The position numbers were made by a program, and so were the translations under genes. A DNA stretch of 64,000 bases from Nanobdellati archaeon (GTDB lineage Archaea > EX4484-52 > WAPT01), in the NCBI GenBank assembly GCA_015520605.1, contig WAPT01000024.1, positions 1 to 64,000 on the forward strand, in the 5' to 3' direction. The stretch's first letter is position 1. Each line of letters begins with the position of its first letter. Shown piece by piece: positions 41,534 through 45,942 of the stretch. The notes under the pieces are model-generated. The model was not told where the DNA came from. It was given only the letters and a program-made list of their open reading frames with translations, and searched no databases.

Positions 41534-41674
41534 GCAGGGGTGGCCGAGAGGTCAAAGGCGCCGGACTTAAGAGGCCTGTCATCCTGCTAAGAAATCCGGT
41601 GGGCGCAGGCCCGTCGTGGGTTCGAAGCACTCCTGCACGAGGCAGGAGTGTCGAGATTCCCACCCCCTGCACCA
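41534..41674 (+). tRNA. tRNA-Leu(TAA) with two introns (41572-41593 at 37/38; about 41627-41657 in the T-loop)
   Basis: Removing both segments restores the CCGGA-CTTAAGA-TCCGG anticodon arm and the GTGGG-TTCGAAT-CCCAC T arm; CCA encoded. Confidence 0.88.
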
Positions 41675-45302: not shown

Positions 45303-45608
45303 TCAATCTTCGATGTAGTATGCGTAATAAAGAGTCTCCGCTTCATCTGGCCTTAGTGGTGCGTTCCAGTCTTTGCTATCTATGATGTGCTTAAGAACAG
45401 CCCCTATAATTTCTTCAAGGTCGATAATATCCATACACGCTTTCCCTGAGTTTATCACTCCTGCTCTTTTCCCGTACTCCAACAGTTCTTGTATTTGTTC
45501 CCTAGACAATTCTACTAGAATCCCTATCCAGTCGAACCCCGGAATTTTCTTTCTCCTACTTATCTCACCTTTTTCCATTTCCAGATCTCTTCCGCTCCCG
45601 ACCATCAC
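45303..45608 (-). CDS. Hypothetical protein
   Basis: ORF with GAGGTGA SD-like site, directly downstream of the 45610-45732 ORF. Confidence 0.55.
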   Translation of the reverse strand: MMVGSGRDLEMEKGEISRRKKIPGFDWIGILVELSREQIQELLEYGKRAGVINSGKACMDIIDLEEIIGAVLKHIIDSKDWNAPLRPDEAETLYYAYYIED

Positions 45609-45609
45609 C

Positions 45610-45732
45610 TCACCTCCCCAAACTCAACAATGACTTCTCCTTCGGGTTATGGTATATTCTACACACCACATATTCGTCTGTCTCACACAACTTCATTCCG
45701 GCTTTCGGACAACAACATCTAAACGGACACAT
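45610..45732 (-). CDS. 40-aa Cys-rich protein
   Basis: MCPFRCCCPKAGMKLCETDEYVVCRIY; strong GGAGGTGA SD. Confidence 0.55.
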   Translation of the reverse strand: MCPFRCCCPKAGMKLCETDEYVVCRIYHNPKEKSLLSLGR

Positions 45733-45757
45733 TTCTTCACCTCCTTTCACAAAACCC

Positions 45758-45799
45758 GCGGCCGCCCGGACTCGAACCGGGAAAACACCTTTCGGCCGC
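45758..45799 (-). ncRNA. Anticodon-less tRNA-like element (acceptor stem plus T arm)
   Basis: GCGGCCG-AAAGGTGTTTT-CCCGG-TTCGAGT-CCGGG-CGGCCGC: perfect 7-bp and 5-bp stems with a canonical T-loop. Confidence 0.6.
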
Positions 45800-45906
45800 A
45801 TTTGGGACAAGCAGAAAGAGAAATACCGCTACCGATTTATCCCATAAAATCCCCACAGACATTCGCATTATCTATCCTTATTCATTCTCATATCTGTTTT
45901 ACAACA

Positions 45907-45942
45907 GAGAAGTAGGTAACTATGGAGAAGTAGGTAACTATG
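45907..45942. repeat. Perfect 18-bp tandem duplication
   Basis: GAGAAGTAGGTAACTATG x2. Confidence 0.9.

Follow-up and report, generated by a model that had tools for sequence, protein, structure and literature searches.

What is the top half of a tRNA doing directly in front of protein-coding genes? The question is raised by a 42-nt element on the minus strand of a 64,000-nt stretch of archaeal DNA (the window), which has an acceptor stem and a T-arm but lacks the D and anticodon arms. It was first read, from the sequence alone, as a tRNA top-half mimic in the 5' leader of protein-coding genes, and both its structure and its position have borne this out. The elements of the locus, from the upstream side, are as follows.

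45835..45850, minus strand: A/T-rich stretch ATTTTATGGGATAAAT, possibly an archaeal TATA region, lying 36-51 nt before the element and partly conserved in the sister genome G002
45800..45823, minus strand: 5' leader, 24 nt, pyrimidine-rich, identical in G002, with T at -1 and containing the 11-mer TTCTCTTTCTG
45758..45799, minus strand: mini-tRNA (acceptor/T-arm minihelix), read from the sequence, included in the MFE fold and in agreement with the RNAalifold consensus
45799-45793, minus strand: acceptor 5' strand of the mini-tRNA
45792-45782, minus strand: linker
45781-45777 and 45769-45765, minus strand: T-stem
45776-45770, minus strand: T-loop
45764-45758, minus strand: acceptor 3' strand
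45757..45757, minus strand: G at the discriminator position, with no CCA encoded after it (GGGTTTT)
45744-45737, minus strand: Shine-Dalgarno (SD) sequence GGAGGTGA of the first ORF, beginning 13 nt past the element
45610..45732, minus strand: 40-aa Cys-rich ORF (7 Cys), a putative gene, strain-specific, absent in the sister genomes G002 and G001
45610..45617, minus strand: second SD GGAGGTGA, which overlaps the 40-aa ORF's stop codon
45303..45605, minus strand: 100-aa ORF with ATG at 45605 (the alternative GTG at 45608 gives 101 aa), the conserved downstream gene

The element and the genes behind it

Read from 45799 to 45758, the mini-tRNA is GCGGCCG / AAAGGTGTTTT / CCCGG / TTCGAGT / CCGGG / CGGCCGC, with 12 Watson-Crick pairs. 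The earlier note on this DNA had described perfect stems of 7 and 5 bp, a TTCGAGT loop and an 11-nt linker, which is exactly what the sequence contains. The T-arm, GGTTCGAGTCC, fits the GGTTCRANYCC motif.

The element is not a tRNA gene by the usual standards, since just 11 nt of linker stand where the D and anticodon arms would be. No tRNA is called there by ARAGORN, and neither the Rfam tRNA family (RF00005) nor the mascRNA-menRNA family (RF01684) matches it at E<=10, the regional matches of the latter falling only on two true tRNAs. Both acceptor strands lie on one piece, a point that bears on split, permuted or intron-bearing tRNAs, and the linker, 3-18 nt long and variable among orthologues, seems to leave too little space for two splice motifs. 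Split-tRNA, BHB and K-turn readings were dropped on inspection of the sequence, with neither paired 3-nt bulges nor G.A pairs being found. The genome of the window carries many disrupted tRNAs.

Could such an element arise by chance? A descriptor (7-bp stem, 3-21 nt linker, then a 5-bp stem closed by a 7-nt T....A loop and directly adjoining the 3' strand, with 8 or more G-C pairs) was run on the whole 863-kb genome and gave six matches, four within true tRNAs and two stand-alone, namely the window copy and C14:19550-19588. The same descriptor found 0, 0, 1, 0 and 0 matches in five locally shuffled genomes. In the scan for copies in the genus, the shuffled genomes yielded 0-3 structural matches, none of them followed by an SD. 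The mini-tRNA is thus beyond chance, and it is not a one-off. Its folding energy is not distinctive, with z = -1.46 and 17 of 200 shuffles folding equally well for the window region, and an uninformative z = -1.33 for the G002 region, so that the case for the element stands on comparative data.

A strong SD followed by a 40-aa Cys-rich ORF about 25 nt after the element had also been noted, and the coordinates agree: the ATG lies at 45732-45730, 25 nt from the element. The proposal of a two-gene operon is not supported. The 101-aa gene is a conserved partner of the element, but neither sister genome has the 40-aa ORF, which leaves the 101-aa gene as the sole conserved partner. In place of the 40-aa ORF, G002 has a 104-nt non-coding hairpin insert, while in G001 the element is followed directly by an SD and a homologue of the 101-aa ORF. 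A MITE identity of the G002 insert was considered and rejected, as the insert is single-copy in the three genomes. The 40-aa ORF has no Pfam match, and tblastn retrieves the ORF itself alone.

The DNA just 3' of the element thus varies by strain, being the 40-aa ORF, the 104-nt insert, or nothing. A search for sequencing runs with the locus returned six DNA-contig runs from two studies, one of them probably the source, and no RNA run. Weak hints of the same variation come from these DNA contigs: a loose end at 45758 in the X4 contigs matches the G002-type insert, and one low-depth X3 contig seems to run from 45617 directly to 45758, skipping 140 nt (short side 23 nt).

The 101-aa protein belongs to a genus-restricted family predicted to form a small helical bundle. 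Its orthologues share 76% (G002) and 39% (G001) identity with it, and the N-domain of a paralogue 31%. It has no Pfam match. A search of 5.8 billion proteins returned two relatives, one being the query, and the genome-contig collection two loci; in the ESM Atlas the best score was 0.89, with no family. The AF2 model has a pLDDT of 72.1, and Foldseek found no match in the PDB at E<=0.001.

Copies in the genus and their likely source

Across the three genomes of the genus (G000, that of the window, and its sisters G001 and G002), nine copies were counted, representing eight distinct sequences of 34-49 nt. Their geometry is constant: all eight have 7 bp, 5 bp, a 7-nt loop and a T-stem joined to the acceptor 3' strand with 0 nt in between, the acceptor stem being coaxial with the T-arm as in t-elements. 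The linker that takes the place of the D/anticodon domain is free to change, both in length (3 to 18 nt) and in sequence. A GG dinucleotide in the linker had been likened to G18-G19 of the D-loop; this likeness is not borne out by the family, where only four of the eight distinct copies have a GG.

Pairing is kept while the stems are rewritten. Over the eight distinct copies, 94 of 96 stem positions are paired, and at least two Watson-Crick pair types occur at 8 of the 12 pairs (acceptor 2, 3, 4, 6 and 7; T-stem 49, 50 and 51), these pair counts being partly due to construction, given that the alignments and the scans that found the copies favour pairing. The five-sequence alignment A5 has 98.3% of its cells paired and two-sided changes at 7 of 12 pairs; none of 500 shuffles equalled the observed value and slid controls paired at 36-53%. 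RNAalifold arrives on its own at the identical consensus structure. Homologues with compensatory changes, whose absence would have spoken against the first interpretation, do therefore exist within the genus. Six different acceptor stems are found (GCGGCCG, GGGGCGC, GCCCCTG, GGGCCGG, GAGCCGG and GCTCCCG), and the discriminator is G, C or T.

The pairs G53-C61 and G52-C62, together with the T and A of the loop, are hallmarks of tRNAs. Both pairs are invariant among the distinct copies, and T at loop position 1 and A at position 5 are found in all eight, although these two bases were a scan requirement for the copies found by scan. The canonical T-loop announced for the window copy is indeed there, but it does not extend to the whole family: four of the eight copies match GGTTCRANYCC, and the other four deviate at loop positions 2/3 (G at position 2 in four copies, A at position 3 in one), so that their T-loops (TGCAATT, TGAAAAT, TGCAAGT) are not canonical.

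Coupling to a downstream gene is another recurrent feature. In six of the eight distinct copies, a GGAGG-type SD starts 6-19 nt past the element and is followed by a start codon on the same strand; the exceptions are the G001 copy at C3:64041, with no SD within 50 nt, and one G002 copy whose SD is 110 nt away. At least three unrelated ORF families are found behind the elements. In two of them the element is kept before the orthologues despite stem changes: the 101-aa family (G000, G002, G001 and a G001 paralogue, that is four of the nine copies) and a TM-protein family (G000 C14, G002 C9 and G001 C4).

How far the family extends was probed in several ways. BLASTN in 41 genomes matched G002 alone. 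The pattern GGGTGMAADTCCC, searched in 42 genomes of the phylum sample, gave four matches outside the genus, none of them a minihelix, and the 39 other genomes of this sample yielded no mini-tRNA. The covariance model R2, run on 61 genomes, gave 15 non-seed matches that were inspected; they are 3' halves of true tRNAs, bar one further G001 copy. The covariance models give the window mini-tRNA 61.6 and 55.4 bits but are sequence-biased, the C14 copy getting only 13.9 bits, so divergent copies may exist elsewhere. As these elements escape both tRNA finders and Rfam, such leaders are probably under-annotated in small archaeal genomes.

A likely ancestor is found in G001. Between the same flanking genes as those of the window element, this genome has a full-length tRNA-Gly(UCC)-like gene, with the acceptor stem GCGGCCG/CGGCCGC of the window copy, no CCA, and A in place of U33; it stands 22 nt before an SD and a zinc-ribbon ORF. 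Canonical tRNA-Gly(UCC) and tRNA-Gly(CCC) genes are found elsewhere in G001. Judging from these sequences, the divergent tRNA-Gly-like gene is likely the ancestor of the mini-tRNA family, which probably arose from such a leader gene and then shed the D and anticodon arms, these not being needed by the tRNA-maturation enzymes.

A proposed processing signal and its rivals

The explanation that best accounts for these data, and which may be given about an even chance, is that the mini-tRNA is a t-element, a tRNA-mimic processing signal in an mRNA leader. A promoter would not fit into the 25-nt gap before the ATG or into the G+C-rich element, so that transcription presumably starts upstream and runs through the element. 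The tRNA-maturation enzymes that read the top half alone would then act on the leader transcript, with RNase P cutting at the U(-1)/G(+1) junction of the element and RNase Z after the discriminator. Cleavage would free a minihelix of about 42 nt, which the CCA-adding enzyme could tag, and would leave the mRNA with a 5' end 6-20 nt upstream of the SD. The mRNA would in this way be parted from the upstream read-through transcript, a tRNA-style punctuation from which the cell would presumably benefit.

The host has genes for such processing, with scores above curated cut-offs for RNase Z (352 bits, C26:16861-17769), the archaeal CCA-adding enzyme (431 bits, C26:8318-9520) and the RNase P protein Rpp30 (105 bits). 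Against this, the RNase P RNA (RF00373) was not detected in this genome, which is 90.7% complete, the best match being 10 bits. The top half of a tRNA is enough for RNase P and the CCA-adding enzyme (PMC4033280), and in Haloferax both RNase P and tRNase Z cleave t-elements (PMC4326828). Those of plant mitochondria, for which GGTTCRANYCC served as a search motif, define mRNA ends, and the freed elements bear non-encoded C/A (Forner et al. 2007, PMC1920247).

The immediate flanks differ from those of true tRNA genes. T is found at -1 in all eight mini copies, versus 12 of the 26 true tRNAs of the genome. An encoded CCA, which blocks RNase Z, is present in 20 of these 26 genes and in none of the mini copies, where CCA would therefore need adding. 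Directly after the discriminator, all eight minis have a purine, versus T or C in the six CCA-less true tRNAs; the mini flank is thus no simple copy of the local RNase Z substrates, which speaks against the t-element.

Further upstream, the leader is more conserved than would be expected if it were to be discarded, and a structured or regulatory leader fits this feature at least as well. The minihelix could thus stay on the mRNA, uncleaved, as a stabiliser against 5'-3' exonucleases, as an on/off element formed with the leader and the SD, or as an operator for a protein, possibly the downstream product. This alternative is rather unlikely, but it has several observations on its side. All 24 leader nucleotides are conserved at the window locus, and all but one of 103 aligned upstream nucleotides are identical between genomes at the C14 copy, while the ORF behind differs. 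The 11-mer TTCTCTTTCTG is common to two otherwise unrelated leaders of the window genome: it has five exact copies there, two of them upstream of the two minis (window and C14). Its reading as a transcription start site was dropped, the distance to the A/T box being unequal at the two loci. MFE folds pair the pyrimidine-rich leader with the purine-rich SD region, and a single protein family follows four of the nine copies. This leader-SD pairing, however, does not reach significance (z -1.3 to -1.5) and is absent from the G001 copies, and at least three unrelated ORF families have an element in front of them. The linker, the part most accessible to a protein, varies from 3 to 18 nt. A generic stabiliser or operator also gives no reason why 7+5 bp, a 7-nt T....A loop, G53-C61, a 0-nt junction and T(-1) should be kept while the stems are rewritten.

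The freed, CCA-tagged minihelix could itself be the product, for instance as a regulator of tRNA-binding enzymes, as a decoy for them or as an aminoacylated minihelix, in which case the locus would be a small-RNA gene whose promoter is shared by the ORFs. The promoter-like A/T stretch lies at the distance seen in true tRNA genes of the genome, where A/T boxes are also found about 30-50 nt upstream, and the structure is under purifying selection. The window copy and the G001 tRNA-Gly-like gene have their first three acceptor pairs in common, and some synthetases can charge minihelices in vitro (PMC11392972, PMC4033280). The six acceptor stems and the three discriminators nevertheless mean that the copies share neither one aminoacylation identity nor a sequence-specific target, and a free-standing small RNA leaves the repeated coupling to an SD and an ORF (6/8) unexplained. 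Such a gene is an unlikely explanation.

A more elaborate scenario, improbable as a whole, would join the two roles in genuine minihelix genes. The tRNA-Gly-like gene would have been pared to its enzyme-read half and used for gene-by-gene mRNA punctuation, the freed CCA-tagged minihelix would persist with a role of its own (decoy or charged minihelix), and the position 3' of the cut site would serve as a slot for coding or non-coding inserts swapped between strains.

That the element is merely a decaying tRNA pseudogene or an integration (att) remnant, functionless today, appears quite improbable. Its kinship with the tRNA-Gly-like gene that occupies this place in G001 is clear, the strain-variable DNA directly 3' of it recalls insertion beside tRNA genes, and the family is restricted to one genus. 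Decay is contradicted by the two-sided changes, which preserve pairing among orthologues and paralogues alike even as the linker drifts. An att duplication would copy a contiguous tRNA end, and not two acceptor strands with an internal deletion; no such contiguous copy is seen. The full tRNA with identical arms that would have betrayed a recent deletion was searched for in the window genome, with none found (the nearest 24-mers differ at three positions). The element is surrounded by housekeeping genes (RsmB/F methyltransferase and PUA protein, Ogg, Lrp, TBP), and no integrase is among them. It is located on the 5' side of a tRNA-Ala gene rather than at its 3' end, and the G002 insert is single-copy.

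A terminator or insulator of the upstream PUA-domain gene, suggested by the G+C hairpin and the T-run GGGTTTTG directly after the window element, is very improbable, since the other seven distinct copies have no T-run (TTTT follows the hairpin in the window copy only), the element lies 150 nt beyond the stop of that gene, behind the promoter-like A/T stretch, and it is always oriented with, and near, the downstream ORF.

If cleavage of the proposed t-element were confirmed, tRNA-maturation enzymes would be seen to shape the 5' ends of archaeal mRNAs in a natural setting, a role in RNA-end formation so far documented for plant mitochondrial mRNAs and Haloferax 5S rRNA, not yet for archaeal mRNAs. 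The genus would also offer a living series that begins with a full tRNA-like leader (G001) and ends with a top-half minihelix of 34-49 nt. The features that survive under selection by processing enzymes alone would then be 7+5 bp, G53-C61, the U..A of the T-loop and U(-1), which bears on minimal RNase P/Z substrates and on 'minihelix first' ideas of tRNA origin.

Comparison with known systems

A close parallel is with the t-elements of plant mitochondria, which combine a tRNA-like fold with the GGTTCRANYCC T-arm motif and are found immediately before the 5' ends of mRNAs; RNase P/Z use both canonical tRNAs and reduced t-elements as cut sites there (PMC1920247). Similarly, the window copy stands before an SD and an ORF, and a full tRNA-Gly-like gene occupies the equivalent position in G001. 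In contrast with the plant case, the mini-tRNA is on an archaeal chromosome of free-living type (a DPANN MAG), not in an organelle. It is reduced to the top half, with a 3-18 nt linker, and half of the copies have a non-canonical loop. It also belongs to a small covarying family bound to particular gene families, and its cleavage is proposed on the basis of sequence.

In Haloferax volcanii, there is an archaeal tRNA-like structure, a t-element upstream of the 5S rRNA (Hoelzle et al.), where the 3' cut by tRNase Z makes the 5' end of the downstream RNA. These t-elements are substrates of RNase P and tRNase Z in vivo and have been used for making crRNAs. The downstream RNA is 5S rRNA or an engineered crRNA in that system, whereas it would be a natural mRNA with an SD here.

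In the mascRNA / MEN-beta system, RNase P and RNase Z cut a tRNA-like module out of a longer transcript and the module is tagged with CCA, giving a small RNA and a processed long RNA. This system is eukaryotic, lies at the 3' end of lncRNAs, and retains an anticodon-like arm.

Finally, in tRNA punctuation, known from the bacterial tRNA-tufB operon and from animal mitochondria, tRNA excision sets the ends of neighbouring mRNAs, as proposed here. Even contig C11 of G001, likely a bacterial contaminant, has such an order, with an SD and an ORF beginning MAKAKF behind its tRNA cluster. The known systems make use of functional full tRNAs, whereas in the present locus the tRNA would have been pared down to the part that the processing enzymes read.

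The window element and its surroundings

The minus strand at 45799-45758 reads GCGGCCG / AAAGGTGTTTT / CCCGG / TTCGAGT / CCGGG / CGGCCGC, letter for letter the sequence and structure of the earlier note, which had described an anticodon-less mini-tRNA leading a two-gene operon. Its 12 Watson-Crick pairs form a 7-bp and a 5-bp stem, with a one-sided linker of 11 nt, a 7-nt loop on the 5-bp stem and zero gap to the 3' strand. The following features lie downstream.

45757, minus: G at the discriminator position
45744-45737, minus: Shine-Dalgarno (SD) sequence GGAGGTGA, 12 nt beyond the discriminator G
45732-45610, minus: Cys-rich ORF of 40 codons with ATG start, behind the first SD
minus, overlapping the stop of the 40-codon ORF: second SD GGAGGTGA
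45605/45608-45303, minus: ORF of 100/101 codons (the 101-aa ORF), behind the second SD
45175-45099: tRNA-Ala(CGC), after the 100/101-codon ORF

Upstream, the A/T-rich stretch 45850-45835 is a candidate TATA region. The element is called neither by ARAGORN nor by Rfam, and its folding energy is not better than that of shuffled sequences (z = -1.46, equalled by 17 of 200 shuffles); energy is not used as an argument, since shuffles fold as well. A weak Rfam tRNA match (25.3 bits, 104 nt) is found elsewhere in the window, at 41534-41637. Directly past the stop of the PUA-domain gene, a perfect 18-bp tandem duplication, CATAGTTACCTACTTCTC twice (45907-45942, minus), may be a regulator binding site. 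One slightly different copy of this unit is present in G002, one of the two other genomes of the genus, and a similar motif, CTACTTCT, lies upstream of the mini copy at C3:65276 of the other, G001.

A family of mini-tRNAs in one genus

A structure-only scan of the window's own genome (G000) gave 51 matches, nearly all A/T-rich. With a T....A loop and eight or more G-C pairs as added requirements, six remained, four within true tRNAs and two stand-alone; of five genomes shuffled locally and scanned in the same way, one gave a single match and the other four gave none. The second stand-alone match, on contig C14, has the same layout with another sequence, and the architecture thus recurs in this genome.

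When the locus was compared by BLASTN with 41 related genomes, only G002 gave a match. Its element differs from that of the window by one stem change, giving a G.U pair, and by a different linker, longer by 2 nt; the 24 nt upstream are identical. The strains begin to differ precisely where the mini-tRNA ends on its 3' side, and metagenome contigs hint likewise. In G001, the flanks of the locus match those of the window (PUA-domain gene on one side, tRNA-Ala and Ogg on the other). Four features stand between them: a tRNA-Gly(UCC)-like gene of full length, with an SD and a zinc-ribbon ORF behind it; a degenerate mini copy, which precedes an SD and a membrane ORF; a tRNA with an intron; and another mini copy. 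An extra G001 copy was retrieved with a covariance model made from three copies, and two more by a structure scan of all of G001. Nine copies, eight of them distinct, are thus known from all three genomes of the genus.

Mini copies outside the window (acceptor strand / linker / T-stem / loop / T-stem / acceptor strand)
G002, window locus: GCGGCCG / TCAGGTTGTGTTT / CCCGG / TTCGAGT / CCGGG / CGGTCGC
G001, window locus: GCGGCCG / 14 nt / CCGGG / TGCAATT / CCCGG / CGGCCGC; then SD and 101-aa ORF homologue
G001, model search: GGGGCGC / 16 nt / TCCGG / TTCGAGT / CCGGA / GCGCCCC; precedes a longer paralogue of the 101-aa family
G001 C4:86463-86496, structure scan: GAGCCGG / TCC / GAGGG / TGCAAGT / CCCTC / CCGGCTC; precedes the orthologue of the C14 membrane ORF
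G001 C3:64041-64089, structure scan: the one distinct copy of the eight for which no SD was seen
G000 C14 19588-19550, minus: GGGCCGG / AGAATAAC / GAGGG / TGAAAAT / CCCTC / CCGGCCC; 6 nt further GGAGGTGA, then ATG of a small membrane-protein ORF
G002, C14 counterpart: identical sequence

In the membrane ORF orthologue of G001 (C4, about 86350-86430, minus), codon 20 is followed by an in-frame stop; the ORF could be a pseudogene or start later, or the stop could be an error of sequencing.

Searches of archaeal genomes, among them the covariance-model search proposed in the earlier note, found the family in all three genomes of the genus and nowhere in the rest of the phylum sample (39 genomes) or in 19 more distant archaeal genomes, the search tools being sequence-biased, so that divergent copies could escape them. 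The 101-aa protein family is likewise genus-restricted. None of the papers listed by a literature search joins t-elements (tRNA-mimic processing signals) with DPANN, and the available part of a review of tRNA gene diversity treats minihelices solely as models (PMC4033280).

Conserved pairing, gene context and probable origin

Across the eight distinct copies 94 of 96 stem positions are paired, and in a model-made alignment of five copies 98.3% of cells pair, with two-sided change at 7 of 12 pairs; these values come from an alignment fitted to the model, from copies related by descent and, for three of them, from a scan that demands pairing. None of 500 shuffles of the five-copy alignment reached the observed values, sliding the partner strand lowered pairing to 36-53%, and RNAalifold yields the same structure. 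Two or three Watson-Crick pair types occur at 8 of the 12 pairs (acceptor 2, 3, 4, 6 and 7; T-stem 49, 50 and 51), while G52-C62, G53-C61 and G1 are invariant. Orthologous positions, found independently across genomes, differ by compensatory changes: acceptor pair 2 is G-C in the C14 copy and A-U in its G001 C4 counterpart, and T-stem pair 51 is C-G in the window and G-C in G001. The homologues with compensatory changes sought by the earlier note are thus present.

Stem and loop lengths are constant, and the linker varies from 3 to 18 nt without conserved sequence. The proposed mimicry of G18-G19 by a linker GG is weak, this dinucleotide being found in only four of eight copies, even if in three of the four with a TTC-type loop. 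Half of the copies also have non-canonical loops.

A GGAGG-type SD starts 6-19 nt downstream of six of the eight distinct copies, followed by a same-strand start codon; shuffled genomes gave 0-3 structural matches, with an SD beside none. In G002 the SD lies 110 nt from the element, behind a 104-nt hairpin-rich insert. This G+C-rich two-hairpin sequence (G002 C22:8434-8537), with no second copy in the three genomes, stands where the window has the 40-aa ORF. Comparison of the window with G002 and G001 does not retain this ORF as a conserved member, and the two-gene operon is not supported. A T precedes the element in 8/8 copies against 12 of 26 true tRNAs, a purine is next to the discriminator (3' side) in all eight, and encoded CCA, present in 20 of 26 true tRNAs, is absent from every mini copy. 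Since the element is G+C-rich and at most 25 nt from several start codons, the promoter must be upstream of it, and we infer that the primary transcript includes the element.

The G001 tRNA-Gly(UCC)-like gene (C3:58040-58110; Rfam tRNA score 55.5 bits) has the same acceptor stem as the window element, and its T-arm is almost identical. The gene encodes no CCA, its anticodon loop TATCCAG has A at the U33 position, and 22 nt beyond it come an SD and a zinc-ribbon ORF of 59 aa. Elsewhere G001 carries canonical tRNA-Gly(UCC) and tRNA-Gly(CCC) genes, which have introns in the T-loop and encode CCA, and the gene at the locus is thus an extra, divergent copy. The simplest history suggested by these sequences would be that a tRNA-Gly duplicate served as a leader and afterwards lost its D and anticodon arms.

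The host is a DPANN archaeon with archaeal genes (TBP, Lrp, Ogg, RsmB/F); its assembly, in which the window is contig C24, comprises 863 kb in 27 contigs (44% G+C, 90.7% complete), and introns disrupt many of its tRNA genes. T-loop introns of about 45 nt are seen at G001 C2:32001-32123 and C2:81687-81809 and at G000 C10:19490-19547, and ARAGORN counts only 16-22 tRNAs per genome in the genus. A tRNA-Thr, Tyr, Gly, Thr cluster at G001 C11:165-495, with an SD and then an ORF beginning MAKAKF behind it, resembles the bacterial tRNA-tuf arrangement; the contig, 9 kb long, probably entered the MAG as bacterial contamination.

Proposed processing of the leader and known analogues

RNase Z (352 bits), the RNase P protein Rpp30 (105 bits) and the archaeal CCA-adding enzyme (431 bits) are encoded in G000, each scoring over its curated cut-off. 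Although Rpp30 is present, RNase P RNA was not detected in G000 with RF00373 (best 10 bits) and may be divergent or unassembled. Cleavage of the element by RNase P/Z, freeing an mRNA with a short SD-bearing leader, is the favoured reading, to which we give about an even chance.

The main rival, an uncleaved structural or regulatory leader, is rather unlikely, with a strikingly conserved 5' leader in its favour: 24/24 nt at the window copy and, at the C14 copy, 103 aligned upstream nt identical but one, while the ORF diverges. The 11-mer TTCTCTTTCTG common to both G000 leaders points the same way. It occurs five times in this genome, twice upstream of the mini-tRNAs (window 45812-45822, 12 nt from the element; C14:19629-19639, 40 nt). 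A free-standing small RNA is doubtful, a neutral relic somewhat more so, and a terminator highly improbable.

Cleavage by RNase P/Z is preferred because the features kept are those read by top-half enzymes, and because t-elements offer analogues. Everything required of a decoding tRNA is gone from the element, while the available part of the review indicates that enzymes reading the top half use features that it keeps (PMC4033280). The known analogues of the mini-tRNA leader are found in plant mitochondria and Haloferax. According to the accessible part of one report, plant mitochondrial t-elements, found through GGTTCRANYCC, fall on the ends of mRNAs, carry non-encoded C/A once released and function alongside full tRNAs (PMC1920247). 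In Haloferax, as described in parts of two papers, tRNase Z cuts a t-element before 5S rRNA, which is usable together with RNase P for RNA excision in vivo (PMC4326828, PMC3296008).
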